Assembly: GCA_016193585.1 (NCBI GenBank)
Contig: JACPRW010000006.1
Location: 293-64,292, forward strand
Source: Candidatus Aenigmatarchaeota archaeon
Lineage (GTDB): Archaea > Aenigmatarchaeota > Aenigmatarchaeia > GW2011-AR5
Direction: 5' to 3'
Length of the DNA: 64,000 nucleotides
Shown here piece by piece: positions 6,734 to 30,355 of this stretch (the first letter of the stretch is position 1; the number at the start of each line of letters is the position of its first letter). The translations under genes were made by a program, and so were the position numbers. The notes below the pieces were generated by a model. It was given only the letters and a program-made list of their open reading frames with translations. It was not told where the DNA came from and ran no database searches.

Positions 6734-7474
6734 TCAGATTTTCACTATTTTTGCGTACTTTCTGCTTTTCCTTATTTTCACGCGGTCGCCTGTGCGAAGC
6801 CCGGTCATGCGGGGGTCGTTGTCTGCCGATAGAAGCGCCCTGTTCCGGACAACAGTCACCGTAACCACGGAATTTTCCTTGAGAACAAGATGCTTTGCTG
6901 GTTCGGTGAGGTTATTGAAGGCGACGCCGATTCCTTTTGCGAACCGTTTCCGGGTAATGGAGTAATAATATGCGCCTGAACCGAACGGCGTCGAAACCGT
7001 TACGCCGTCGCCGACAAGCAGGCCGTTCACCTGCCTGCCGTTCACTGCAACCTCGAACCGTATGCAATTCGTCTGCTGCTTGTTGCGTATGACGACGTCG
7101 TTGAGGCATGTCGCTCTCAGAAGCCTGCCCTTATTCCGCACAACCGCCTCAAGCTTCATGGCTTTTTCGATGCGGTATTTTCCTGCCCTGATGCCCGACA
7201 GGATGATTCCAAGCGAGTCCCAGTCGCAGACGTTGCATATGGATTTGTTCCGTATCGGCAGCTTCGGTACGCCGGGATACGCGCGCTCAGCGTACAGCAG
7301 CGTTCCGTCGCCTCCCAGCGAGATGACGATATCAGGTCTTTCCTTTGTGTACCGCATACCTGCTTTCCTGATGAGCCTGCGGTACTGCGTGATAACGTGC
7401 TTGTTCTTGCCGACGATGAAGAACCTCAATACCCTGCGTTTGACGCTTCGCGCATCAAACGCATCGTATCCCAT
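6734..7474 (-). CDS. nadK: NAD(+) kinase
   Basis: GGDGTLL signature, about 246 aa. Confidence 0.8.
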   Translation of the reverse strand: MGYDAFDARSVKRRVLRFFIVGKNKHVITQYRRLIRKAGMRYTKERPDIVISLGGDGTLLYAERAYPGVPKLPIRNKSICNVCDWDSLGIILSGIRAGKYRIEKAMKLEAVVRNKGRLLRATCLNDVVIRNKQQTNCIRFEVAVNGRQVNGLLVGDGVTVSTPFGSGAYYYSITRKRFAKGIGVAFNNLTEPAKHLVLKENSVVTVTVVRNRALLSADNDPRMTGLRTGDRVKIRKSRKYAKIVKI

Positions 7475-7475
7475 G

Positions 7476-8777
7476 TTATACGCCTCTTATAGAATCCTCG
7501 AACATATCCAGACCGTAGTCAGCCTGTGCTTTCGTGATGATGAGCGGCGGGCACATCCTGATGGATGATATGCCTGCGGGCAGGAGAAGAAGCCCTTTCT
7601 CGGCAGCGGCGCAGAGAATCCGCTGCCGCTCCTGAACACCGTACCGCTTTGTTTTCTTTTCTTTGACTATTTCAGCGCCAATCATCAGCCCAAGGCCGCG
7701 CACGTCGCCGATGATGTCGTACTGCTCTTTCATCACGCCGAGCCTCCTGAGCATATGCTTCCCGACACGCTCCGCGTTCCGGCCTAATTTCTTTTTCCGC
7801 ATGTACCCCAGCGTCGCGATGCCTGCTGCGCAGGCGAGCAGGTTGCCGCCGAACGTGTTGGCGTGCGAACCCGGCGGCCAGTCCATGACCTTCCTGTTCG
7901 CCATTGTCGCGCCGAGCGGAATGCCGCCGCCGATGGCTTTGCTCATGGAAACGATGTCAGCCTTGACGCCGAAATGCTCCAGCGCAAGGAATTTTCCCGT
8001 CCTGTAGCAGCCAGCCTGCACTTCATCATCGCACAACAGCGCCCCGTATTCGTCGCACAGCTTCCGCATCCCCTTCACGAAGTCCTTCGGCGGGACGATG
8101 TAACCAGCTTCCCCCGCAACCGGCTCGAAAAACACGGCAGCGACATCGCCATTGCACGATTTGATGGCGCTTTCGAGCTGGCTGAGGTACTGCCCGGAGC
8201 AACCACCGTGACCGCTCGTTCCGAAAGGGCAGCGATAGCAATACGGGTATGGCGCATGCTTCACCGGCATGAACGGGCCGAAACGCTCCCGCTGCACCCG
8301 CTTCGAGTTGGTGAGCGAGAGCGAACCCATCGTTCTCCCATGAAAGGACGGCTTGAATGCTATGGTCCATTTCCTGTTCGTATGCCACCGCGCCAGCTTG
8401 TACGCAGCCTCGATGCTCTCCGTGCCTGAGTTGGAAAGGAATGCGGCGTTGAGATGCTTTGGAAGAAACGTCAGAAGCTGCTCCACAAAACGGACAGGAA
8501 GCTCTGCGTAGAAATCACTGAAGCCGCAGTGGTATCCTCGCTTTGCCTGCTGCACTACTGCCTTGATGACCGCGGGGTTCGTGTGACCGATTCCCATGAC
8601 GGCGACGCCGGCTGCGAAATCCAGGTAGCGGCGGCCGTCCATGTCCCAGACATGACATCCTTTCGCTTTCTGGTAGACGAAGGAGTATTCGCGCGTCAGC
8701 GAAGGCGACATCACCCTGCGGTCGCGCCGTATGACCGCCTGCGATTTCTTTCCCGGAGGCCGGCAGATGAAGCGCAT
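7476..8777 (-). CDS. Class III (omega) aminotransferase, GABA/acetylornithine aminotransferase-like
   Basis: PLP-lysine region SMSKAIGGG, 433 aa, fold-type I AT-III motifs. Confidence 0.8.
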   Translation of the reverse strand: MRFICRPPGKKSQAVIRRDRRVMSPSLTREYSFVYQKAKGCHVWDMDGRRYLDFAAGVAVMGIGHTNPAVIKAVVQQAKRGYHCGFSDFYAELPVRFVEQLLTFLPKHLNAAFLSNSGTESIEAAYKLARWHTNRKWTIAFKPSFHGRTMGSLSLTNSKRVQRERFGPFMPVKHAPYPYCYRCPFGTSGHGGCSGQYLSQLESAIKSCNGDVAAVFFEPVAGEAGYIVPPKDFVKGMRKLCDEYGALLCDDEVQAGCYRTGKFLALEHFGVKADIVSMSKAIGGGIPLGATMANRKVMDWPPGSHANTFGGNLLACAAGIATLGYMRKKKLGRNAERVGKHMLRRLGVMKEQYDIIGDVRGLGLMIGAEIVKEKKTKRYGVQERQRILCAAAEKGLLLLPAGISSIRMCPPLIITKAQADYGLDMFEDSIRGV

Positions 8778-13184: not shown

Positions 13185-14648
13185 CTATTCAATATCAATC
13201 TGCGCCCTCTGCAGCTTCCCGCTGTAATCGATGTACACGGTCTTCACTTCGCTGAACTCGTCGATGCCCATAATGCCAGCTTCACGGGTGCCATTGCCCG
13301 TCTGCTTGATGCCGCCGAACGGCAGGTGCGTCTCCGCGCCGATGGTGCTCGCGTTCACGTACGTGATGCCTGCATCTATCTTCTCTATTGCCTTGAACGC
13401 TACCCCGATGTCGTTCGTGTAGATAGACGAGCTGAGACCGTATTCGACGGCATTCATGGCGTCTATCGCTTCGTCGAGGCTTCTGACGGAAATCAGCGAA
13501 AGGACGGGACCGAATATCTCCTCCCGGGCGATGCGCATATCGATGGCAACATCGGTGAAAATCGTCGGCCTGAAGAAGAAGCCTTTCTTTCCGTATCTCT
13601 CTCCTCCGCATAGTATTTTCGCTCCCTCTTCCATGCCTATTGACGTGTAGCGCTCGGATTTTTCCAGCGCTGCCCTGTTGACCAGTGGACCAACGTCAGT
13701 TGCAGGGTTCATGCCGGAGCCAAGACGCAGTTTTCCAGCCCGCTTCACGAGGTGCTGCTCCAGCTTCTTCCGTACCTTCTCGTGCACGATGACGCGCGAC
13801 GCAGCGGTGCACCGCTGGCCCGTGGTACCGAAGGCTCCCCATACGACGCCGTCCACCGCGAGCCCGATGTCCGCGTCAGGCATGACGATGATGCCGTTCT
13901 TGCCGCCGAGCTCCAGACCGACGCGCTTGATGCCCGCGTGCTGCGTTATCCACAGGCCGGTGTCGCGGTTGCCGGTGAAGGAGATGCCGAGCACTTTTTT
14001 GTGCCTCACGAGTGCGGTGCCTGCAGGGTCTCCCGGGCCGGTAACGAGATTGACCACGCCTTTCGGCACGCCAGCCTTCTCGAGAATTCTAACAAGTTCA
14101 ACCGCGCACAGCGGCGTATCTGATGACGGCTTCCAGACGACGCTGTTGCCGCAGACAAGCGCGGGCGCGAGCTTCCACGCCGGTATGGCGATGGGGAAGT
14201 TCCACGGCGTTATGAGTCCGACCACGCCGACCGGACGCCGCACGGTCATGCAGAACTTGTTCCGCAGCTCGGACGGCGTCGTCGCACCGAAGAGCCTTCG
14301 CCCTTCGCCTGCCATGTATTCAAAAATGTCAATAGCTTCCTGCACATCACCGCGGGCTTCGGTGAGCACCTTGCCCATTTCAACGGTTTCCAGTCGCGCC
14401 AAACGCTCCTTGTTTTCTTTTAGAAGCTGTGCAATCCCCAGCACTATTTCTCCCCTTTTCGGCGCAGGGGACGAAGACCACGCTTCAAATGCGTCCCCGG
14501 CGGCGTCAACAGCTGCCGAGATGTCCTTTGCGTTGCTCTTCTGGAATCTCCCTATGGATTGTTCAGTCGCCGGATTAAGGGATGGAAAGGTTTCGCCAGC
14601 GGCAGATAGCACCCATCTGCCGGCGATGTAGTTTTTGTAGATTTGCAT
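13185..14648 (-). CDS. Aldehyde dehydrogenase family protein
   Basis: 487 aa, ELGGKN and catalytic Cys region (GQRCTAA) motifs. Confidence 0.85.
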   Translation of the reverse strand: MQIYKNYIAGRWVLSAAGETFPSLNPATEQSIGRFQKSNAKDISAAVDAAGDAFEAWSSSPAPKRGEIVLGIAQLLKENKERLARLETVEMGKVLTEARGDVQEAIDIFEYMAGEGRRLFGATTPSELRNKFCMTVRRPVGVVGLITPWNFPIAIPAWKLAPALVCGNSVVWKPSSDTPLCAVELVRILEKAGVPKGVVNLVTGPGDPAGTALVRHKKVLGISFTGNRDTGLWITQHAGIKRVGLELGGKNGIIVMPDADIGLAVDGVVWGAFGTTGQRCTAASRVIVHEKVRKKLEQHLVKRAGKLRLGSGMNPATDVGPLVNRAALEKSERYTSIGMEEGAKILCGGERYGKKGFFFRPTIFTDVAIDMRIAREEIFGPVLSLISVRSLDEAIDAMNAVEYGLSSSIYTNDIGVAFKAIEKIDAGITYVNASTIGAETHLPFGGIKQTGNGTREAGIMGIDEFSEVKTVYIDYSGKLQRAQIDIE

Positions 14649-20357: not shown

Positions 20358-20979
20358 ACGTATTCATTGCCTCGAGGACATTTAACGCTTTGCATCTTTC
20401 CGCCAAAGTTTTCATGTCGAGCTTGTCCTTGAATAACTCATACAGATACACCGCATCCTCTATATCCTTTTCAGAGCCGAGGTATAGTTTGAATGCTATC
20501 TGGCTTTCGATGCGCGACGTGATAATGCTGGACTTGTTCACAACAACTTCGATGGTGTCTTTCCAGACACGTTCATCCCTGTTAATTTTCATTTCAATGT
20601 TTGGTATAGCTTGCTTTTCCTTGGCTATCCTTATAGCTTCGTCTTCCTTGAGCATTTGAAATGCCATCGCTCTATCAGAGGTGTTGAGTATCCATAACCC
20701 AGCCTTTTCCTCCTTTTCCGACAATTCATCAAATTTATTTTTGCCTATATCCTCGATAAACATATCAATATCCTCCGTGGACCGCGACCTGCCAAATAAA
20801 ATGGGCACATAGCCGCTGACAATGATGTACTTGATATGCAGTGAGTTCAAGATTTCGACAAATCGTAGAACAAACCTATCAATGTCCGAAAGCTCCTTCG
20901 AGAATGAAATTTTTCCTTCGGAAAATTCAAATTCCATGCTACAACTAAGGAGGCAAACTTTTAATGAACCATCAAACAA
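20347..20979 (-). CDS. Putative nucleotidyltransferase-fold protein
   Basis: SGYVPILFGRSRSTEDIDMFI resembles the G[SG]-x(9-13)-D-x-D nucleotidyltransferase motif; weak. Confidence 0.35.
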   Translation of the reverse strand: MFDGSLKVCLLSCSMEFEFSEGKISFSKELSDIDRFVLRFVEILNSLHIKYIIVSGYVPILFGRSRSTEDIDMFIEDIGKNKFDELSEKEEKAGLWILNTSDRAMAFQMLKEDEAIRIAKEKQAIPNIEMKINRDERVWKDTIEVVVNKSSIITSRIESQIAFKLYLGSEKDIEDAVYLYELFKDKLDMKTLAERCKALNVLEAMNTYVR

Positions 20980-21991
20980 GGCACACCTTCGGCGGGCTCT
21001 TGAGAAGCTGGTATAAAAGTTCGACCGTGTTTTCGATGTCCTTCATGCGTGCGACGCCGACCGTGGTGTGGATGTTCTTCACGGCGACGCCGACCGACGT
21101 TGTCGGGATGCCGCCGCGGGAAATGGAGATGTTGAGCGCATCGGTCATCCCAACGTCGCTCACGGCGAGCTGCACCGGGATCTTGTTTTTCTTTGCCAGG
21201 TCAAGCAGCCACTCATTGATGCATTTGTTCGACACCGTGCCTGCATCCTTGACGGTTATGCATGGTCCCTTACCGATGAGGCGAGCGTCGTCGGCTTCGT
21301 ATGTATTGATAACGTCAACCGCAATAGCCCAGTCAGGCTCGAGCGTATACGCCGATGTCTTGGCGCCGTACAGGCCTATCTCTTCCTGCACCGTGAACAC
21401 ATAGTACAATTCGTTCGAGCCTTTTGCAAGCCGCTTGGCAAGCTCGATAAGAATATAGCAGCCTATCCTGTCGTCAAGCGCTTTCCCGTAGATGACGTCC
21501 TCGTTGCCGAGGTAGTGGAGTTCCTGGTCGAGCGACATGACCGTCCCTATCGTTATGCCTGTCTTGGCAAGGTCTTCCCTGTCAAGGCCCGTATCGACGT
21601 ACATATCTTCGAGCCTCGGCATGTCAATGATGGGGTTGCCGTCATTCATGAGCGATGTCGTGACGATGCCGTGGACCGTTTTTTTCTGGGCGTGTATGTG
21701 CACGCGCTGGCCTAAGAGCGTTATGGGCTCGATGCCGCCGACGAGCGAGAAATAAATCCTTCCCGAACCAGAGATGCGCTTTGCCATGAGCCCGACCTCG
21801 TCCATGTGGGCAGCGATCATGACCTTCGGCTCCCCCCTGCCCTTCTCGCGCGCGATGAGGTTCCCGGAGCTGTCAACCTGCACGTCGTCGACATACGGCT
21901 TTATCTCATTGCGGATGATTGAGCGCACCTCCTCCTCGCTGCCGCTGATGCCGTGCGCGTGGACGAGCCGCTTGAGCAATTCGAGCGTCAT
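20972..21991 (-). CDS. M42 family (TET/FrvX-like) aminopeptidase
   Basis: MIAAHMDEVGLMAKRI, LVGGIEP motifs; start trimmed to MTLELLKRL (upstream in-frame extension contains a 24-bp tandem duplication). Confidence 0.8.
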   Translation of the reverse strand: MTLELLKRLVHAHGISGSEEEVRSIIRNEIKPYVDDVQVDSSGNLIAREKGRGEPKVMIAAHMDEVGLMAKRISGSGRIYFSLVGGIEPITLLGQRVHIHAQKKTVHGIVTTSLMNDGNPIIDMPRLEDMYVDTGLDREDLAKTGITIGTVMSLDQELHYLGNEDVIYGKALDDRIGCYILIELAKRLAKGSNELYYVFTVQEEIGLYGAKTSAYTLEPDWAIAVDVINTYEADDARLIGKGPCITVKDAGTVSNKCINEWLLDLAKKNKIPVQLAVSDVGMTDALNISISRGGIPTTSVGVAVKNIHTTVGVARMKDIENTVELLYQLLKSPPKVCLV

Positions 21992-21997
21992 ACTAAT

Positions 21998-22049
21998 ACC
22001 CCGCACTTCGTGCGTCGTAATACCCCGCACTTCGTGCGTCGTATCCCAT
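21998..22049. repeat. 24-bp perfect tandem duplication (ataccccgcacttcgtgcgtcgta x2) in 5' leader of M42 peptidase gene
   Basis: Direct reading of sequence. Confidence 0.8.
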
Positions 22050-22219
22050 TCTATAGAATAGTTTCTCGGCAGCGCCATATAAAGATTTTGTCCTTTTTCA
22101 GGTTCGGGAAGCGCTCGTGTAACCTTTATATACTACTAAATAGTAATAACTTATAGTCCCACTTTTGTGGGAATCGGCATATTAGAAAATTGTAGGTTAA
22201 ATGATACTGGTGTGATGGC

Positions 22220-22871: not shown

Positions 22872-22886
22872 GAGCGGTGACACGCT
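22872..22886 (+). promoter_or_regulatory. Putative archaeal TATA box (TTATAAA) about 25 nt upstream of the giant ORF start (leaderless-type spacing)
   Basis: gacacgcTTATAAAccg preceded by purine-rich BRE-like bases. Confidence 0.3.
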
Positions 22887-22904
22887 TATAAACCGCATAA
22901 CCCA

Positions 22905-25900
22905 ATGTATTCTCAGATGCGCATGAGCAAAAGCCTGTTTGAAGTAGTTGTCATACTTGTATTCGTATTCTTCGTTCTTTTCCATTATCAGCTTTCTCCG
23001 ACGGCAAACGTTACTGCAGCAGCTTCTGCACGGAGCAAGCTCGGCCTCCACACCAGTTTCCAGAACGGTGATGCGTGGAGAACCATACAGGAAGCAAAGC
23101 CGGCTGTTGTCAAGCTTTTTGGCGAATACAGGCAAGCAGCTGAAATCAAACAGGTCTCGCCATGCACGTTTATTGTGGCAAGAACAACACAACCTCAGAA
23201 TAGCCAGCGCTATGATGGAGCCCCCGAAGACAGGGCCCAGGATTGGTTCAATACCTATAAGGATACCATACAAGCTTATCCACGTATTGATTGCTGGGAA
23301 GGGTACAACGAGCCGCCTGCCCAGAATGCCGACCAGATGCGGTGGATAGGGCTTTTTGAAAAGAAGCGCGTCGAGTTGCTTGCAACGATCAACGCCAAGG
23401 CGTGCATAGGTTCATTTCCTGTCGGCAATCCGTCGATACCTGACACATGGCGCGAATTCTATCCGGCGTTTCAGGCAGCGAAGGAGAAGGGCGGTTTCCT
23501 CGCCCTCCACGAATACGGTCCGCCGAGCAACATGCAATGCTATTTCAGCGGCGACGGGCCATGGCTCAATGGTAGATACCGGAAGGTATACAATCAGTAC
23601 CTCATCCCCGATGGCCTCGTCATACCGCTCGTCATGACTGAAGCAGGGATAGACGGCGGCTTATGCGACCAGCGTGGCTGCGAATGTAACCTATGTCGTG
23701 GTGATGCAGAGAATAAATGCGGCTGGAGAGCGTACGGAATAAGCACTGAGCGGTATATGAACGACCTCAGATGGTACGATTCTGTCATCAAGGAGGACAG
23801 CTACGTCATCGGCGCCACCATATATCAAACCGGCATTCCGGGGTGGAGGAGCTTTGAAACATCTCCTGAACTGACGCAGCCGCTCATCACCTACATCAAC
23901 CAGGTCCCTGCGCCGACGCCGCCGAATTGTCCTGTTACTAGTGCTCCGCCTCCCCCACCGCCTGTACAGAAAGGCACAGTCGCAGGCACGGTCACCGACG
24001 AGAACACGGGCTTTGGCATAGGGGAAGCAACGATACGCATCGTTAGTACTGGCATAACAGGTCGACCTATGTCCCCTGACGGCGAGTACACCATTCCCGA
24101 TGTCCCTGCCGGCACCTATACGGTCACTGCGTCTGCTTCAGGGTATCTGTCGCAGTCAAAGGACCTCCAGGAAGTGAGAAACGGGGAAACGACAACGGTT
24201 AACTTCGAGCTGATCCCCGTCCCTCCGCTTGAGGCGTGCTCGCCGAACTGTTACATTGGCGATGAAGCAGGTTATGATAAACTCTGTGCTGGCGGCACGC
24301 AGAATATCTGCGGCGGCACCAAGAACTACGGCGACGTCGTGAGCTGCAGCGAAGGCGCTGCTGAATTCGATGCTCTCTGCAGGCTCAACAGGGACGACCC
24401 GTTCATCACGTATCACACATGGTCTGAGTGCAACACTGATGCTCCGGAGAAAGGCGGGCCGAACGGCGACATTGCTGACGCAGGAACGGTGTGCGAGGCC
24501 AACGGTCGCTGCGGCGCTGGCGTGCAGGGTTCATACCTCTGCGCCCAGTTCAACGGAGCAGAGGATACGTGGGTTGCCTGCGGCACTGATGTCGCAAGCG
24601 GCGGCGATATTGTTGTTGGTTCAACAACATATAATTGCTGCAGCGGTGTCTGGCAGACAACGACATGCGGCGTAACGCCTCCTCCACCGCCTCCGCCGCC
24701 GACGCCGGTAAACAAATGCACCGCCTGCGGGAGGCCGTGCCTGCGGCTCGACAGGACTATCGGCCAGTGCACGGCTGCGCTCCAGTGCATCGGCGTGCAG
24801 TCATACGTTGACGGCAAGCGGTGCTGCGCTGACGAGGACTGTTCTCTGGGGCAACAATGCACCAACGGCGCGTGCGGCGCTGCGGTGAGTCCGGGATGCG
24901 CCAATCTCGCGGCGCGCTTCCAGCGCGACCTCAACGGCAACGGCCAGCCCGACGGCAGCGACGGGCCATGGGAGCAGAGCCTGCAGGCATCGTCCGGCGA
25001 TTCCATCAACGTCGGCCTCATCGACACGAACACCATGGGCTACCCGTCGGCAACGCTCCGCGCCAGCGGCCCTAGCTTCAGCCAAACATTCAGCAGCAAT
25101 CCTGCCAATTTCAGGCCACAGACAACAGGCACCTACACGCTCTCTGCGCAGTCAGGGTCGTGCACTGCGCAGGCGACGCTGACGGTGACAGGAACGAGCA
25201 CTGCGTGCGCTGACAGCACATCGCTCAGTGCGTGTTCGGCGACCAAGCCGAAGTACTGTGATGCTTCTGGAACACTCCAAGAAAACTACTGCTTCGGCCC
25301 TGACCGGGTCGCGGGCAACGCTGATGACTGCGGGTGCTCATCAGGGGCGTGTCAGGCAGACGGCAGGTGTGGCACAGCGCTCCCTCCGCCACCTGTTGCC
25401 GATGGCGGTCTCATCCGCGCCATACAGGACGAGTTCGGCGTCACCATGCAGGGCACCTGGAGTCCTTACCCGCAGCACCTGCGCTGGATCTATGAAAAGT
25501 TCTGGGAACTGAAGCAGACCAACCCAACGTTCATGCAGATGCTGCGCGGCAGGCCGATCTGGTGGGCAACCTGCTGCCCGAACCAACTGAGCGGCTACGT
25601 GCAGATGCCGACAACCGGCAGCTATGCGTACCGCGATGCCTTCATCACGACGCTGCTCCATGAACTGGGCCATGATATTTACTTCAATCGCCGCGATGCA
25701 GGGGCACTGACAGCGCGGTACGACGCGCACTTCGACGCGAACGGCAGGCAGGTCTTCACGAGCTACGCGAATTATTATGCAGCCGATTTCAACCGCCGGA
25801 CAGAGAATTACGCCGAGGTGATTGCGTACTGCCTCACCGGCGATGCAGTGGCATACCATTCCCGTGTGCAGCCGCAGTGGATCGACACAACAAAATGGCA

Positions 25901-28829
25901 GACCTATGAAGATCTCGCCAAGGAAATAACAGGCGGCTTGTGCAAGACGAGCGTGCCGCCGGATCCTGTATGCTCTGACGGCACGGCACTCGGCGCCTGC
26001 TCCTCGCAGAAGCCCCTCCACTGCATGTACCGGGGCGACCTCGTCGAGGACTGCGAACCATGCGGCTGCGCGGCAGGAAGGTGCGATACAACGAGTGGCA
26101 GGTGCATATCGTCATTCACCATTTCAGGCACGGTGAGCGACGTAAGCGGCAACCCGCTGCCGGATGCAGTACTTACGCTTACAGAAAATAGATTCTACGT
26201 CATTGCCAGATCTCGAACAGACGGTTCTGGCAGGTTTTCTATTCCTGATGTACCGCAAAGCACTTATGAATTGTTCTCTCGAAAAGAATGCTTTGAAAGC
26301 GCTTCTGAAACGATCGATCTGGCAGCCGACTACACCAAAAATTTCAGGCTGAACGATGCAGTGCTCGGCAGGGTTGAAATCAACCCTGCTTCTTCACAGA
26401 TCGAGGCTAATCAAAAAATGCAGTTTTCTGGCGCTGCATTTGATGCGAATAACAGGGGCATGCCTGCCCGCTTCAGCTGGAGCTCGGACAATACGAACAT
26501 CGGGACCGTGACCAGCACGGGCGAATTCGAAGGCAGAAACGAAGGCAGCACTACTGTCCGCGTCAGCGCCACGTGCGGCGCGACAACGCGGAGCGCTTCT
26601 GCGACGGTGACCGTACTGCCATCAGGGAGCATCGTGCTCAAACGATGCAGCGAAGCTGATGCGAGCACACCGACGAAAGTAGACTACGTGCTCATTCCGG
26701 AGCAGTCATACACCAGCATCGACGAATTCAAGCGGGATGTAGAAACAAACTATGTGCCAAAGCTCTTTTCGATATCCCCAATTGACGCGAACAAGCAGAA
26801 GTTCAACATATATTATTACGAAGAGAAGGCAGTATGCGACCGCGACGGCCCGAAGGGCACAAAACTCTGCACGCTGCCTTCAAATCTCGGCCATGACTGC
26901 CCGTTCGCAGACATAAAAGCTGTCATCCATAAAGGCACCTGGAGAGACTACGCGATGAGAGACCGTACCTTCACCGCCAACAGCCCCATAACGCAGGTGC
27001 ACGAGATCGGCCATGCGCTCTTTGATTTAGCCGATGAATACTGCTGCGATGGCGGCTACGAAATGCGCGAGCCATACCCGAACATATTCGTCGAGCAGAA
27101 CAGCTGCCAGCAGCAGCTCGACGACAACGGGATAGCGAAACGGTGCAAGCGGCTATGCAAGGACGAGGACCAGGGAGCGTCATGCATCCTCGGCTGCGAC
27201 TGCATTAACTGGTACCGCCAGGAAGGGAAAAGCATCATGAACAACCAGTTCATCTACGAACAGTTCAGCGAAAACAACCTGCTCAGGGTAAACGACGTGT
27301 TTGGGGTATATAGCTCTGGTTCTCAGACAACTCCACAACAAACTTCGCTCGCGAGCTGTATGGCAATTACCAGTCCGGGAACCTATGTGATCGGAGCAGA
27401 CCTGCGCTCAGGCGATACGTGCATGACAATCCAATCATCCGATGTTACGCTTGATTGCGCAGGCAAAAAACTCGAGGGCACGGGCTATAGAGGAAGCGGT
27501 ATCCGCATAGAGGGAAGCGGAACTATACGGAACGTAGAAGTAAAGAATTGCATCGTGAAAGGATATGAAACAGGCATTATCGCACTCAATGGAGAGACTA
27601 TACGGATAAAAGACAATGATGTATCTGATAATTACGATGATACGAAAGGCTGGACAATGAGCAAGTGCACTGAAGACTTAGCACGGATCGGTATCGCAGG
27701 CGAAACGGAACGGAATAGGAAATGTGACATCTGCTTCAAGGCAGGGCGGTGTGGTGTGTTTCTCGGCGACCCCGAAGGCACTGGCATCCACCTCAAGAAT
27801 ACGAAATCGAGTGTTATAGAAAACACTATAGCCCATAATACAGGAATTGGCATCTGGCTTGAAAGCAGCGACAGTAATCAGGTTAAAAATAACGACGTCT
27901 CGTACTCAACTGCATTCGGCATCTACCTACTGGGAGCCAGTAACAGCGTCGTCGAAAACAATATTGCAAATGACGTTACCCGTAACTGCGCGTACTGGTG
28001 CTCTGAAACCGGATGCATCAAAGGGTGCGATGCCACGGGCATCATACTCGAGTCGCGGTTTAGGGACAATGAAAATAACATTATCAGAAAGAATACAGTA
28101 CTGAGGGGAGGCGACGGCATTTTCCTGAAACCAGGCGGGACATTCTGCAGCAACAACAATGAGATCGCAGAAAATGATGTTTCAGGGGCGTTCACCAACT
28201 GCATCGAAGTGACCTTTTGCAACGGCAACAGAATCAAGAGCAACAAAGCCCACAACTGCCCTATCGGATTGTGGCTCGGGTACGCGACCAACACCCTGGT
28301 CGAGGGTAATGAATTCATAAGCAATGCAAATGATGCCATCAATGCTGAAAACAGCAAAGGCAATACCATAAAGCGTAACGTGATTAGGCGCGGCGGGAGG
28401 GGCATCTATCTCTGGAAAAATCCTGTCACTGACCCGATTATCGAAGGAAGGAAAGTAGCAAACCCGCAGCTCAGAGAGCCATTCCCATCTTCCAATCACA
28501 TCATAGAAAGGAATACAATAGAAAATGAGCGGGGGATAGAGTTCACCGATACCGACACAACAGAAATCAGGTACAATACCATTAAAACTAAGGAAAACAT
28601 CATGCTCACGAGGGGTTCAAGCGGGGTGAAGATTTTCAGCAACAACCTGCTCTGCGAAAACTGCCTGTTTTCAGTCAAAAATGACCAGGACATTACCGTG
28701 AATGCGCAATACGATTGGTGGGGCACCGCGGATACGGCCCAGATAGAGCGCATGGTGTACCACAAGACCGATAATACTGCCGTGGGAGAAGTATACTATA
28801 CGCCGACTTTGAGTGGCACCTATGTGTGA
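22905..28829 (+). CDS. Giant (1974 aa) secreted multidomain surface protein: GH-A-like TIM barrel, Pro-rich linkers, Cys-rich modules, CarboxypepD_reg-like domains, two HExxH zincin-like domains, Ig-like (Big_2) domain, C-terminal parallel beta-helix repeats
   Basis: N-terminal TM/signal; WEGYNEP + MTEAGID (GH-A acid/base and nucleophile-like); PPPPPP(V) and TPPPPPPPPTP linkers; LLHELGHD (25659-25673) and VHEIGHALFDLADEY (26999-27013); >15 PbH1-like repeats res about 1500-1960. Confidence 0.85.
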   Translation: MYSQMRMSKSLFEVVVILVFVFFVLFHYQLSPTANVTAAASARSKLGLHTSFQNGDAWRTIQEAKPAVVKLFGEYRQAAEIKQVSPCTFIVARTTQPQNSQRYDGAPEDRAQDWFNTYKDTIQAYPRIDCWEGYNEPPAQNADQMRWIGLFEKKRVELLATINAKACIGSFPVGNPSIPDTWREFYPAFQAAKEKGGFLALHEYGPPSNMQCYFSGDGPWLNGRYRKVYNQYLIPDGLVIPLVMTEAGIDGGLCDQRGCECNLCRGDAENKCGWRAYGISTERYMNDLRWYDSVIKEDSYVIGATIYQTGIPGWRSFETSPELTQPLITYINQVPAPTPPNCPVTSAPPPPPPVQKGTVAGTVTDENTGFGIGEATIRIVSTGITGRPMSPDGEYTIPDVPAGTYTVTASASGYLSQSKDLQEVRNGETTTVNFELIPVPPLEACSPNCYIGDEAGYDKLCAGGTQNICGGTKNYGDVVSCSEGAAEFDALCRLNRDDPFITYHTWSECNTDAPEKGGPNGDIADAGTVCEANGRCGAGVQGSYLCAQFNGAEDTWVACGTDVASGGDIVVGSTTYNCCSGVWQTTTCGVTPPPPPPPPTPVNKCTACGRPCLRLDRTIGQCTAALQCIGVQSYVDGKRCCADEDCSLGQQCTNGACGAAVSPGCANLAARFQRDLNGNGQPDGSDGPWEQSLQASSGDSINVGLIDTNTMGYPSATLRASGPSFSQTFSSNPANFRPQTTGTYTLSAQSGSCTAQATLTVTGTSTACADSTSLSACSATKPKYCDASGTLQENYCFGPDRVAGNADDCGCSSGACQADGRCGTALPPPPVADGGLIRAIQDEFGVTMQGTWSPYPQHLRWIYEKFWELKQTNPTFMQMLRGRPIWWATCCPNQLSGYVQMPTTGSYAYRDAFITTLLHELGHDIYFNRRDAGALTARYDAHFDANGRQVFTSYANYYAADFNRRTENYAEVIAYCLTGDAVAYHSRVQPQWIDTTKWQTYEDLAKEITGGLCKTSVPPDPVCSDGTALGACSSQKPLHCMYRGDLVEDCEPCGCAAGRCDTTSGRCISSFTISGTVSDVSGNPLPDAVLTLTENRFYVIARSRTDGSGRFSIPDVPQSTYELFSRKECFESASETIDLAADYTKNFRLNDAVLGRVEINPASSQIEANQKMQFSGAAFDANNRGMPARFSWSSDNTNIGTVTSTGEFEGRNEGSTTVRVSATCGATTRSASATVTVLPSGSIVLKRCSEADASTPTKVDYVLIPEQSYTSIDEFKRDVETNYVPKLFSISPIDANKQKFNIYYYEEKAVCDRDGPKGTKLCTLPSNLGHDCPFADIKAVIHKGTWRDYAMRDRTFTANSPITQVHEIGHALFDLADEYCCDGGYEMREPYPNIFVEQNSCQQQLDDNGIAKRCKRLCKDEDQGASCILGCDCINWYRQEGKSIMNNQFIYEQFSENNLLRVNDVFGVYSSGSQTTPQQTSLASCMAITSPGTYVIGADLRSGDTCMTIQSSDVTLDCAGKKLEGTGYRGSGIRIEGSGTIRNVEVKNCIVKGYETGIIALNGETIRIKDNDVSDNYDDTKGWTMSKCTEDLARIGIAGETERNRKCDICFKAGRCGVFLGDPEGTGIHLKNTKSSVIENTIAHNTGIGIWLESSDSNQVKNNDVSYSTAFGIYLLGASNSVVENNIANDVTRNCAYWCSETGCIKGCDATGIILESRFRDNENNIIRKNTVLRGGDGIFLKPGGTFCSNNNEIAENDVSGAFTNCIEVTFCNGNRIKSNKAHNCPIGLWLGYATNTLVEGNEFISNANDAINAENSKGNTIKRNVIRRGGRGIYLWKNPVTDPIIEGRKVANPQLREPFPSSNHIIERNTIENERGIEFTDTDTTEIRYNTIKTKENIMLTRGSSGVKIFSNNLLCENCLFSVKNDQDITVNAQYDWWGTADTAQIERMVYHKTDNTAVGEVYYTPTLSGTYV

Positions 28830-29547: not shown

Positions 29548-29800
29548 GCGCCATTCTATAGTGAACCAAGTAAACAATCATGTATTACATCTTGGTTCAC
29601 GTACACCCAAAAAGCAAAGCTTTTTGGTGCACCGGAAAACTTTGTTTTCCGCGTGTAGCGGACAACAAAAGTACTATGCCGGTATTCTTTTGTTGGTCCA
29701 CTATAACTCTGGTTTGTCCCCTTAAAACCTTGAAAAACGCATGTTGTATCAAATGACAGAATTTTGTATAAATATTTCTGTCACTTGCTGCAAGGAGATG
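29548..29800. repeat. Composite MITE (family R6) plus partial family R3 unit
   Basis: TAGTGAACCAAG...TTGGTCCACTA with TA flanks; similar to 2094-2245. Confidence 0.75.
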
Positions 29801-29866
29801 ACAGCACCACCTGAAAGCACCTTTATATACTACTTAAGAGTGAATACGTATAGAAACGGTGCTCAT

Positions 29867-30355
29867 ATGCGTGTTCGGAAGTACGTTAACCGGCAAACCG
29901 CTGCGCTCGGCATTGCAGCGCTTGGCGCAGCCGTTGCGCTGGTGTACGGGCCGCCGCAGCCGACACAACACGATGCACTCCCTGTCCAGGGAAACCGCTA
30001 CGAGCTGACACCCATACCACCATGGGACACGTCGGGCAGACAGAATCTCGCTATTCTCAAGTACCGCGTTGAAGGCGGCAGGTTTGTTCTTGATTGCGCC
30101 GATTATGTTCTCGGGTTCCCACCAGATCGTGTGAGAAATCAAGGCCTGACAGCAGAGGTTATCGGCGATCGAGGCATACTAAGATCGTATACCATAGACG
30201 ATCCGCGCGGCGTCGGCTACGATGCGCCGGTCGTGCTGACAGAATTTACGCTTGTTCTGCCTGTTCACGGAGTAAAAGAGAACATTGTGGGTATTTATGG
30301 CAAGGGGCAGCAACTGGCATACAACTGGCTATCTGACATAGCACCATGCCCTTGA
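29867..30355 (+). CDS. Secreted/membrane-anchored hypothetical protein
   Basis: MRVRKYVNRQTAALGIAALGAAVALVYG signal-anchor. Confidence 0.45.
   Translation: MRVRKYVNRQTAALGIAALGAAVALVYGPPQPTQHDALPVQGNRYELTPIPPWDTSGRQNLAILKYRVEGGRFVLDCADYVLGFPPDRVRNQGLTAEVIGDRGILRSYTIDDPRGVGYDAPVVLTEFTLVLPVHGVKENIVGIYGKGQQLAYNWLSDIAPCP

Follow-up and report, generated by a model that had tools for sequence, protein, structure and literature searches.

A giant, putative exported multi-domain hydrolase of a DPANN archaeon with a predicted GH-A-type barrel and two zincin-like domains

The window analysed here is a stretch of 64,000 nucleotides from a Candidatus Aenigmatarchaeota archaeon (contig JACPRW010000006.1, assembly GCA_016193585.1), to which all positions refer. 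One of its genes, called below the giant gene, encodes a protein in which an N-terminal (beta/alpha)8 barrel, two HExxH (zincin-like) domains and a C-terminal parallel beta-helix follow one another (Table 1). We consider, with moderate confidence, that this giant protein is an exported, disulfide-rich, multi-catalytic hydrolase of a DPANN archaeon, most likely attacking the envelope of other cells. The fold and conserved residues of the barrel, the zincin motifs, the partners of the barrel in other proteins and an unusual depletion of N-glycosylation sites all bear on this reading.

The giant gene, its product and its modules

The reading frame is intact, with no internal stop, and its DNA recurs with 100% identity in SRR12113428 and SRR12113418, two Logan assemblies made independently (over 9,560 and 9,226 bases). 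A sequencing or assembly artefact is therefore unlikely, and a fusion created by frameshift, which was considered as an explanation of the unusual size, is ruled out. The public call of the gene in these assemblies starts at Met7 (22923) and gives 1968 aa. We also noted a TATA-like 'cttataaa' 12 nt 5' of the first ATG (window 22886-22923), so that a leaderless transcript starting at Met5 (22917) or Met7 is possible; these alternative starts alter nothing downstream. The archaeal origin assumed by the initial annotation, a reading made from sequence motifs, agrees with the identity of another window open reading frame (ORF) to MBI2971681.1, the M1 metallopeptidase of a Candidatus Aenigmarchaeota metagenome-assembled genome, where it is encoded on a 196-kb contig.

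The mature protein would have a mass of ~210 kDa, a pI of ~5.0 and 88 Cys. At its N-terminus a basic stretch precedes a hydrophobic core of 16 residues, and an ASA motif stands before R43; hydropathy analysis of the whole protein finds one hydrophobic segment (aa ~11-27) and no other. This single N-terminal segment, together with the cysteines and the acidic pI, argues for export. The N-termini of the giant protein ('MSKS-LFEVVVILVF...', window 22923-23000) and of its closest relative, the archaeal protein P0002 ('MKKRA-FEISVIVVF...'), seem to resemble archaeal class III (prepilin-type) signals more than plain Sec signals; alongside these, proteins encoded next to a barrel relative in another archaeal locus, L008, begin 'MKGEISEIILTV...'.

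Table 1. Positions of the giant gene, of its modules and of neighbouring genes in the window
Feature	Position	Strand	Remarks
Giant gene	22905..28829	+	1974 codons, ATG start
N-terminal export signal or anchor, aa 1-42	22905..23030	+	sole hydropathy peak; similar N-terminus in P0002
(beta/alpha)8 barrel, clan GH-A-like, uncurated family, aa 44-338	23034..23918	+	
CarboxypepD_reg beta-sandwich 1, aa 358-436	23976..24212	+	Pfam E 3e-26; preceded by PPPPPP linker (aa 348-353)
Cys-rich region, aa 445-665	24237..24899	+	27 Cys; divided by P8 linker (aa 592-599); aa 445-658 kept in P0002
Module aa 666-765	24900..25199	+	weak match to fungal agglutinin 2x2s only
Cys-rich module A, aa 768-822	25206..25370	+	9 Cys; C-x8-C-x3-KP-x2-C...C-x-C...C...C
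Zincin 1, aa 831-1013	25395..25943	+	HELGH 919-923, ENYAE 967-971
Cys-rich module B, aa 1023-1067	25971..26105	+	8 Cys; second copy of module A
CarboxypepD_reg/SpaA-like beta-sandwich 2, aa ~1070-1150	26112..26354	+	Pfam above threshold
Big_2 Ig-like domain, aa 1161-1235	26385..26609	+	Pfam above threshold
Zincin 2, putatively divergent M64-like, aa ~1255-1470	26667..27314	+	HExxH at aa 1366
Right-handed parallel beta-helix (NosD/PbH1 type), aa ~1485-1940	27357..28724	+	
Peptidase_M23 ORF, 163 aa	19496..19987	+	E 9.5e-20; no signal peptide; 3 kb upstream of giant gene
M42 aminopeptidase	20972..22078	-	~830 bases upstream of giant gene
Upstream secreted protein, 210 aa	22220..22852	+	counterpart adjoins giant gene in archaeal L001 (42% identity, E 6e-31)
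Downstream protein, 201 aa	28834..29439	+	signal peptide, C-terminal transmembrane helix, basic tail; starts 5 nt past giant stop
Paralogue of the downstream protein	29741..30355		
M1 metallopeptidase, 843 aa	61308..63839	+	identical to MBI2971681.1

The initial annotation had recognized a signal or membrane anchor, a GH-A-like barrel, CarboxypepD_reg-like sandwiches, Cys-rich modules with poly-Pro linkers, two HExxH domains, a Big_2-like Ig domain and a C-terminal parallel beta-helix, and this reading by motifs is largely supported. The anchor corresponds to the N-terminal hydrophobic segment; Pfam finds the two sandwiches and the Ig domain, while the Cys-rich modules and the linkers (the third at aa 827-830) are directly visible in the sequence, as are the two HExxH motifs. 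For the beta-helix, Beta_helix (105.6 bits) and NosD (94.8 bits) of Pfam each match four stretches within aa 1525-1840, and para_beta_helix (TIGR03804) of NCBIfam matches six stretches of the C-terminal region with 63 bits, all above threshold. In the domain searches proposed as a check, the beta-helix was thus recovered; on the other hand, the glycosidase found no library match and the zincins remained below threshold. Since the hidden Markov model libraries fail or stay sub-threshold for these modules, their assignment rests on fold and profile evidence.

The ~450-aa beta-helix region, for which the initial annotation gave about 15-20 repeats, could accommodate ~19 coils and is followed by a DWWG-containing tail up to aa 1974; its own search gave a xylosidase (E 0.064) as sole match. 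Zincin 1 is bracketed by the Cys-rich modules A and B, and self-BLAST detects no long internal repeats in the giant protein. Taken alone, the segment aa 681-784 (24945-25256) weakly matches the Sclerotinia sclerotiorum agglutinin 2x2s (E 0.006), so that it may be a lectin-type module, a suggestion made by this single weak match and backed by no other test.

The N-terminal barrel and its relatives

Built from a 51-sequence alignment, the AlphaFold2 model of the barrel displays eight beta-alpha units with a predicted local distance difference test (pLDDT) score of 90 and a predicted template modelling score of 0.91. Across the 51 relatives (30-50% identity), W131, E136, H202, Y204, R224, E246, W290 and G303 are invariant. 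In the model Glu136, in the motif N135-E136-P137, is situated just past strand 4 (strand residues 95-97 in model numbering, Glu at 101), and Glu246, in T245-E246-A247-G248, inside strand 7 (residues 207-214, Glu at 211). A Glu after strand 4 and another in strand 7 form the residue constellation that defines the retaining glycosidases of clan GH-A. Both on its fold and on these two positions, the modelled barrel fits the clan, with Glu136 as putative acid/base and Glu246 as putative nucleophile, the very roles first assigned to the NEP and TEAG motifs. Glycosidase activity itself is putative, as suggested by the fold and the conserved residues.

No Pfam family covers this barrel at E <= 10 in any of nine members, neither NCBIfam nor PHROGs provides a match, and PDB sequences searched with a nine-sequence profile give chance matches only. 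Membership of glycoside hydrolase families GH5 or GH39 was considered and dismissed because there is no sequence-level match. Judged by Pfam, NCBIfam and PDB sequences (CAZy is not among these), the barrel appears to lie outside every curated glycoside hydrolase family tested. The family is a large one: an exhaustive profile search retrieved 3,474 cluster representatives with E no higher than 1e-3, and 493 under the stricter limit of 1e-30. The barrel module is 38-46% identical to a segment placed variously in other large proteins. A genome scan using the nine-sequence alignment located bacterial relatives in Anaerolineae and other Chloroflexota, Marinacidobacterales, Myxococcota and a spirochaete, and archaeal ones in uncultured archaea, Methanomicrobia, Nitrososphaerota and Aenigmatarchaeota.

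What these relatives carry besides the barrel is informative. A Pfam scan of 74 multidomain relatives identified as partners Amidase_2 (N-acetylmuramoyl-L-alanine amidase, eight proteins), Peptidase_M23 (five), SH3_3 (four) and LysM (one). A sizeable minority of the partners are generic carbohydrate-binding modules; the same scan found dockerin (four proteins), CARDB (three) and PKD, PA14, CBM4_9 and F5/8-type C (two each). Three archaeal loci of the genome scan were examined (L004, L005 and L008), with barrels 44-50% identical to that of the giant protein. LysM is fused to the barrel in two of them, and the barrel gene is each time followed directly by one for an SLT lytic transglycosylase domain joined to a peptidase, either an M14 carboxypeptidase or M12-like. 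Archaea do not make murein; this conserved operon therefore looks like a murein-directed toolkit in archaea, which Pfam-based screens would pick up only in part. By analogy, it would match the secreted peptidoglycan hydrolases reported for archaea, DPANN lineages included, some of which kill bacteria (PMC12352652). The link between the barrel and murein-lytic modules is recurrent and independent, but it is guilt by association. The operon spans 5380-9354 in L004, 5242-9426 in L005 and 23-3158 in L008, and the SLT-peptidase gene is followed in turn by genes for highly conserved products of 661-664 and 156 aa.

Other contexts are less telling. Barrel relatives occur on four IMG/VR viral contigs, where PHROGs recognizes nothing informative among the neighbours except a UvsX-like recombinase. 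A fold search of BFVD with the barrel returns GH5-like or unnamed phage proteins, with no lysin annotation among them. The Anaerolineae locus L025 has unrelated transporter neighbours, and an M23-fused bacterial relative (P0146) is carried on contigs of just ~3 kb, too short for its context to inform.

Zincin domains, sequons and neighbouring genes

Zincin 1 has two relatives, one of them a stand-alone secreted protein of 296 aa. HELGH and, 48 residues later, ENYAE are invariant in the three sequences, all of which match MPTase-PolyVal of Pfam below threshold (E ~1e-4). In its structure model, of moderate quality (pLDDT 70), the clearest long fold matches within the top ten are anthrax lethal factor (LF), the Pro-Pro endopeptidases PPEP-2/3, MtfA and botulinum neurotoxin, as far as a weak model can be trusted. 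A gluzincin fold is likely on this modelling evidence, perhaps of the LF/PPEP/MtfA type.

For zincin 2 only five relatives are detectable, and the segment HEIGHALFDLADEYCCDGGY (aa 1366-1385) is near-identical residue for residue in all six members, which have HExGHxxFxLADEYCCDxxY as invariant pattern. The initial annotation had found the second HExxH motif reminiscent of M64 peptidases, and the family profile goes in the same direction: searched against PDB with six sequences, it obtains exactly four matches, all M64 (9qdh, 9ekk, 3p1v and 4df9, E ~0.01), along two co-linear stretches. In one of these, HEIGHALFDLADEY of zincin 2 lines up with HEFGHGLLGLGDEY and HEFGHSFGGLADEY of 9qdh and 3p1v, so that the M64 zinc site has its counterpart; the other concerns the N-terminal sheet region. 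Moreover, five of the six members match Pfam M64, the best relative with E 3.7e-6. We read zincin 2 as a probable divergent relative of M64, not a member by the threshold of Pfam. As in the barrel, where E136 and E246 do not vary, the HExxH motifs of both zincins are invariant in relatives, and so are their downstream acidic residues within the respective small families; conservation of the putative catalytic residues, a check proposed by the initial annotation, is thereby observed in all three modules.

A distinct peculiarity concerns N-glycosylation. The giant protein contains one sequon (N-x-S/T, x other than Pro) where its composition predicts 18.1, and P0002 contains one against 18.6 expected. 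Six archaeal barrel proteins (L004:5380-6861, L005:5242-6876, L006, L008:23-1318, L010 and L016) have together one against 18.3, whereas seven bacterial relatives have 35 against 31.3 and 27 other ORFs of the window 42 against 33.3. The single sequon of the giant protein, N35, is beside the signal segment, and its remaining N-x-S/T triplets are N-P-S and N-P-T only, which cannot be N-glycosylated. One sequon or fewer was never reached in 20,000 shuffles of the whole sequence (minimum 4) nor in 5,000 shuffles by 100-residue blocks, and the control motifs are as frequent as expected (S/T-x-N 22, N-S/T 19, N-x-x-S/T 15). Two operon neighbours in L008 have no sequon either, for 5.6 and 5.4 expected. 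The simplest explanation would be that in archaea these exported enzymes have been under selection to escape N-glycosylation; that the archaeal copies have lost their sequons almost completely, and the bacterial ones have not, offers a testable indication of it. A literature search returned no description of such a depletion.

P0002 is the sole other protein with extended similarity to the giant protein (46% identity over aa 41-658). Its contig is archaeal, bearing Rpb7-like and ribosomal protein S24e genes, and its C-terminal half, unlike that of the giant protein, carries Tricorn/PD40-type propellers. The window shares with this archaeal locus of P0002, L001, a cassette of three genes: a small secreted protein, a giant hydrolase and a protein of ~200 aa with a signal and a C-terminal anchor. 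In L001 the flanking genes occupy 7298-7960 and 13307-13912, and the second is the equal of the window's downstream gene in length, position and build (E 0.002). The flanking proteins have no Pfam entry and no PDB sequence match, and the flanking genes of the window display no homology with the operon genes of L004, L005 and L008. The anchor of the downstream partner might, we suppose, serve to retain the giant protein at the surface. This downstream gene and the ORF at 29741 are paralogous (35% identity over 80 aa, E 2e-7), with a 'PPDR ... DPR' core in common.

Two peptidase genes precede the cassette. The Peptidase_M23 ORF provides this archaeon with one more endopeptidase fold of the murein type; the M42 aminopeptidase is encoded on the opposite strand. 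With M42 and M1 members, the peptidase-rich window fits the description of Aenigmarchaeota as dependent on many peptidases (PMC8407114).

Proposed function and known systems

We propose the following mechanism. The N-terminal hydrophobic segment would direct passage through the membrane, then be cleaved or kept as a tether. The GH-A-type barrel would act as a retaining glycosidase, with Glu136 as acid/base and Glu246 as nucleophile, on a wall-associated glycan, while the LF/PPEP-like gluzincin and the M64-like zincin would cut the peptide or protein parts of the same envelope. Between the catalytic heads, the beta-sandwiches, the Cys-rich modules and the linkers of poly-Pro might serve as rigid spacers, and the C-terminal beta-helix might bind polysaccharide or a surface. 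That the protein is an exported and catalytically competent hydrolase seems quite probable to us; that it targets the envelope of other cells is about an even call, and that the target is specifically a bacterial murein-type wall falls somewhat short of that. We infer bacterial peptidoglycan walls to be the best-supported substrate, the envelope of an archaeal host being the alternative, and the purpose would be antagonism, scavenging or access to the host. Where the initial annotation offered a generic choice of functions (adhesion, attachment to a host or breakdown of polymers), the present evidence points more narrowly to a murein-associated hydrolysis of the cell envelope.

Several observations weigh against this proposal. 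Zincin 1 reaches 20.5 bits for MPTase-PolyVal (aa 896-940), where 27.5 are required, and zincin 2, searched as a domain alone, 21.8 bits for Peptidase_M64 (PF09471, aa 1364-1387), where the gathering cut-off is 26. Enzyme activity across the barrel family is a prediction. Pfam and NCBIfam detect in the giant protein no LysM, SH3, PG_binding, Amidase_2 or M23 module, so that it does not combine a recognized peptidoglycan-cleaving domain with a peptidoglycan-binding one. Ig-like and beta-helix modules are equally typical of adhesins. Aenigmarchaeota are considered to have archaeal hosts (PMC8407114), and archaea lack murein. Finally, because other barrel relatives bear dockerin, CBM4_9, PA14, CARDB or PKD and because the nearest folds act on plant, algal and biofilm polysaccharides, nutritional or exopolysaccharide substrates stay in play.

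The last point leads to the most serious competitor, a nutritional depolymerase: a surface-tethered 'mini-cellulosome' that would digest environmental polysaccharide, glycoprotein or necromass, not living cells, and feed an organism poor in transporters and pathways. GH39, GH53, GH5 and GH79 enzymes and PslG are the nearest solved folds of the barrel, the phage proteins of nearest predicted fold carry GH5-like annotation, and dockerin, CBM4_9, PA14 and F5/8-type C occur in the family; the peptidases of the window and the reliance of Aenigmarchaeota on such enzymes (PMC8407114) also agree with it. Yet the commonest partners of the barrel are the murein-specific ones, and SLT-peptidase genes adjoin it in each archaeal relative examined. 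Attack on live walls and breakdown of dead ones are inseparable by sequence. We hold this explanation to be rather unlikely, though it deserves consideration.

An adhesin or envelope scaffold attaching the DPANN cell to its host, with enzyme-like modules that only bind or are inactive, appears improbable. The beta-helix, the Ig-like and CarboxypepD_reg domains and the Cys-rich modules would all be at home in an adhesin or S-layer-type protein, NCBIfam reports a partial match to an anammox S-layer glycoprotein (67 bits for a cut-off of 1400), and giant DPANN surface proteins such as SPEARE have been proposed as host-interaction factors (PMC6642349). However, all three enzyme modules keep every one of their putative catalytic residues, with no variation among relatives, which is unexpected for decayed domains and disfavours an adhesin-only role, and the giant protein has no C-terminal anchor and no known S-layer signature. 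More improbable still is an autolysin-like housekeeping role in trimming or maturing the glycans and proteins on the surface of the producer itself, for which the cassette kept in a second archaeon and the Amidase_2- or M23-fused bacterial relatives, possibly autolysins, could be invoked, but which is disfavoured because a search of 5.8 billion proteins brought up just two relatives with this extended architecture, as well as by the near-lack of sequons, unlike ordinary archaeal surface proteins.

The envelope-directed hydrolase can be extended into a more ambitious scenario: a novel family of GH-A cell-wall (murein-type) glycosidases, recruited by DPANN archaea as a weapon or host-entry tool, joined to two metalloproteases and purged of sequons against the producer's own oligosaccharyltransferase. 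As a whole we regard it as doubtful. Modular exported hydrolases as such are already known; the new elements are the large uncurated GH-A-type family with its murein-lysis association and the sequon depletion of archaeal copies. Members of this family number in the thousands and come from Chloroflexota, Acidobacteriota, archaea (DPANN and others) and phage contigs; their glycosidase fold is clear, but Pfam, NCBIfam, PHROGs and PDB contain no entry for them. The activity of one member would annotate them all and might define a new glycosidase family. For the question of how DPANN archaea breach or feed on neighbour cells, the giant protein and its three putative hydrolytic heads offer a concrete, clonable candidate.

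Compared with clan GH-A enzymes (nearest folds GH39 5jvk and PslG 4zn2, then GH53, GH79 and GH5), the barrel has the same (beta/alpha)8 architecture, Asn-Glu just past strand 4, Glu in strand 7, His-x-Tyr on strand 6 and Trp near strand 8. It differs by an identity of only 9-13% to the nearest solved folds, with no single GH family standing out, and by its compactness (~295 aa), since it is devoid of the accessory beta-sandwich of GH39 and GH79. Zincin 1 may resemble LF/Pro-Pro endopeptidase (M34) and MtfA (M90) in a predicted HExxH helix followed, ~48 residues on, by a Glu-bearing helix (ENYAE), but all its matches are sub-threshold and its model reaches a pLDDT of 70. Zincin 2 shares with M64 enzymes (the Thomasclavelia ramosa IgA protease 9qdh, 9ekk and the Bacteroides proteins 3p1v, 4df9) the N-terminal strand region and the HExxHxxxxLxDEY zinc site, whereas its CCDGGY motif and Cys-rich C-terminal half are additional.

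Among whole proteins, the SPEARE proteins of Ca. Nanohaloarchaeum antarcticus (PMC6642349) are likewise very large exported DPANN proteins with protease and adhesion-type modules; they reportedly carry serine protease and restriction-endonuclease domains instead of a glycosidase and two zincins. Closer in spirit are Woldo and Danwoldo, modular peptidoglycan hydrolases of archaea (PMC12352652), with which our system has in common exported hydrolases, murein-free organisms, a patchy distribution and domain shuffling, and which the barrel relatives fused to LysM, M23, Amidase_2 or SH3_3 also recall. Those enzymes pair Pfam-defined catalytic and wall-binding domains. Because the giant protein has neither, it would be invisible to a screen of that type, and Pfam-based searches for archaeal anti-bacterial peptidoglycan hydrolases would miss it together with the LysM-fused archaeal relatives. 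It is also ~5-10 times larger than Woldo and Danwoldo and gathers three putative catalytic modules in one chain.

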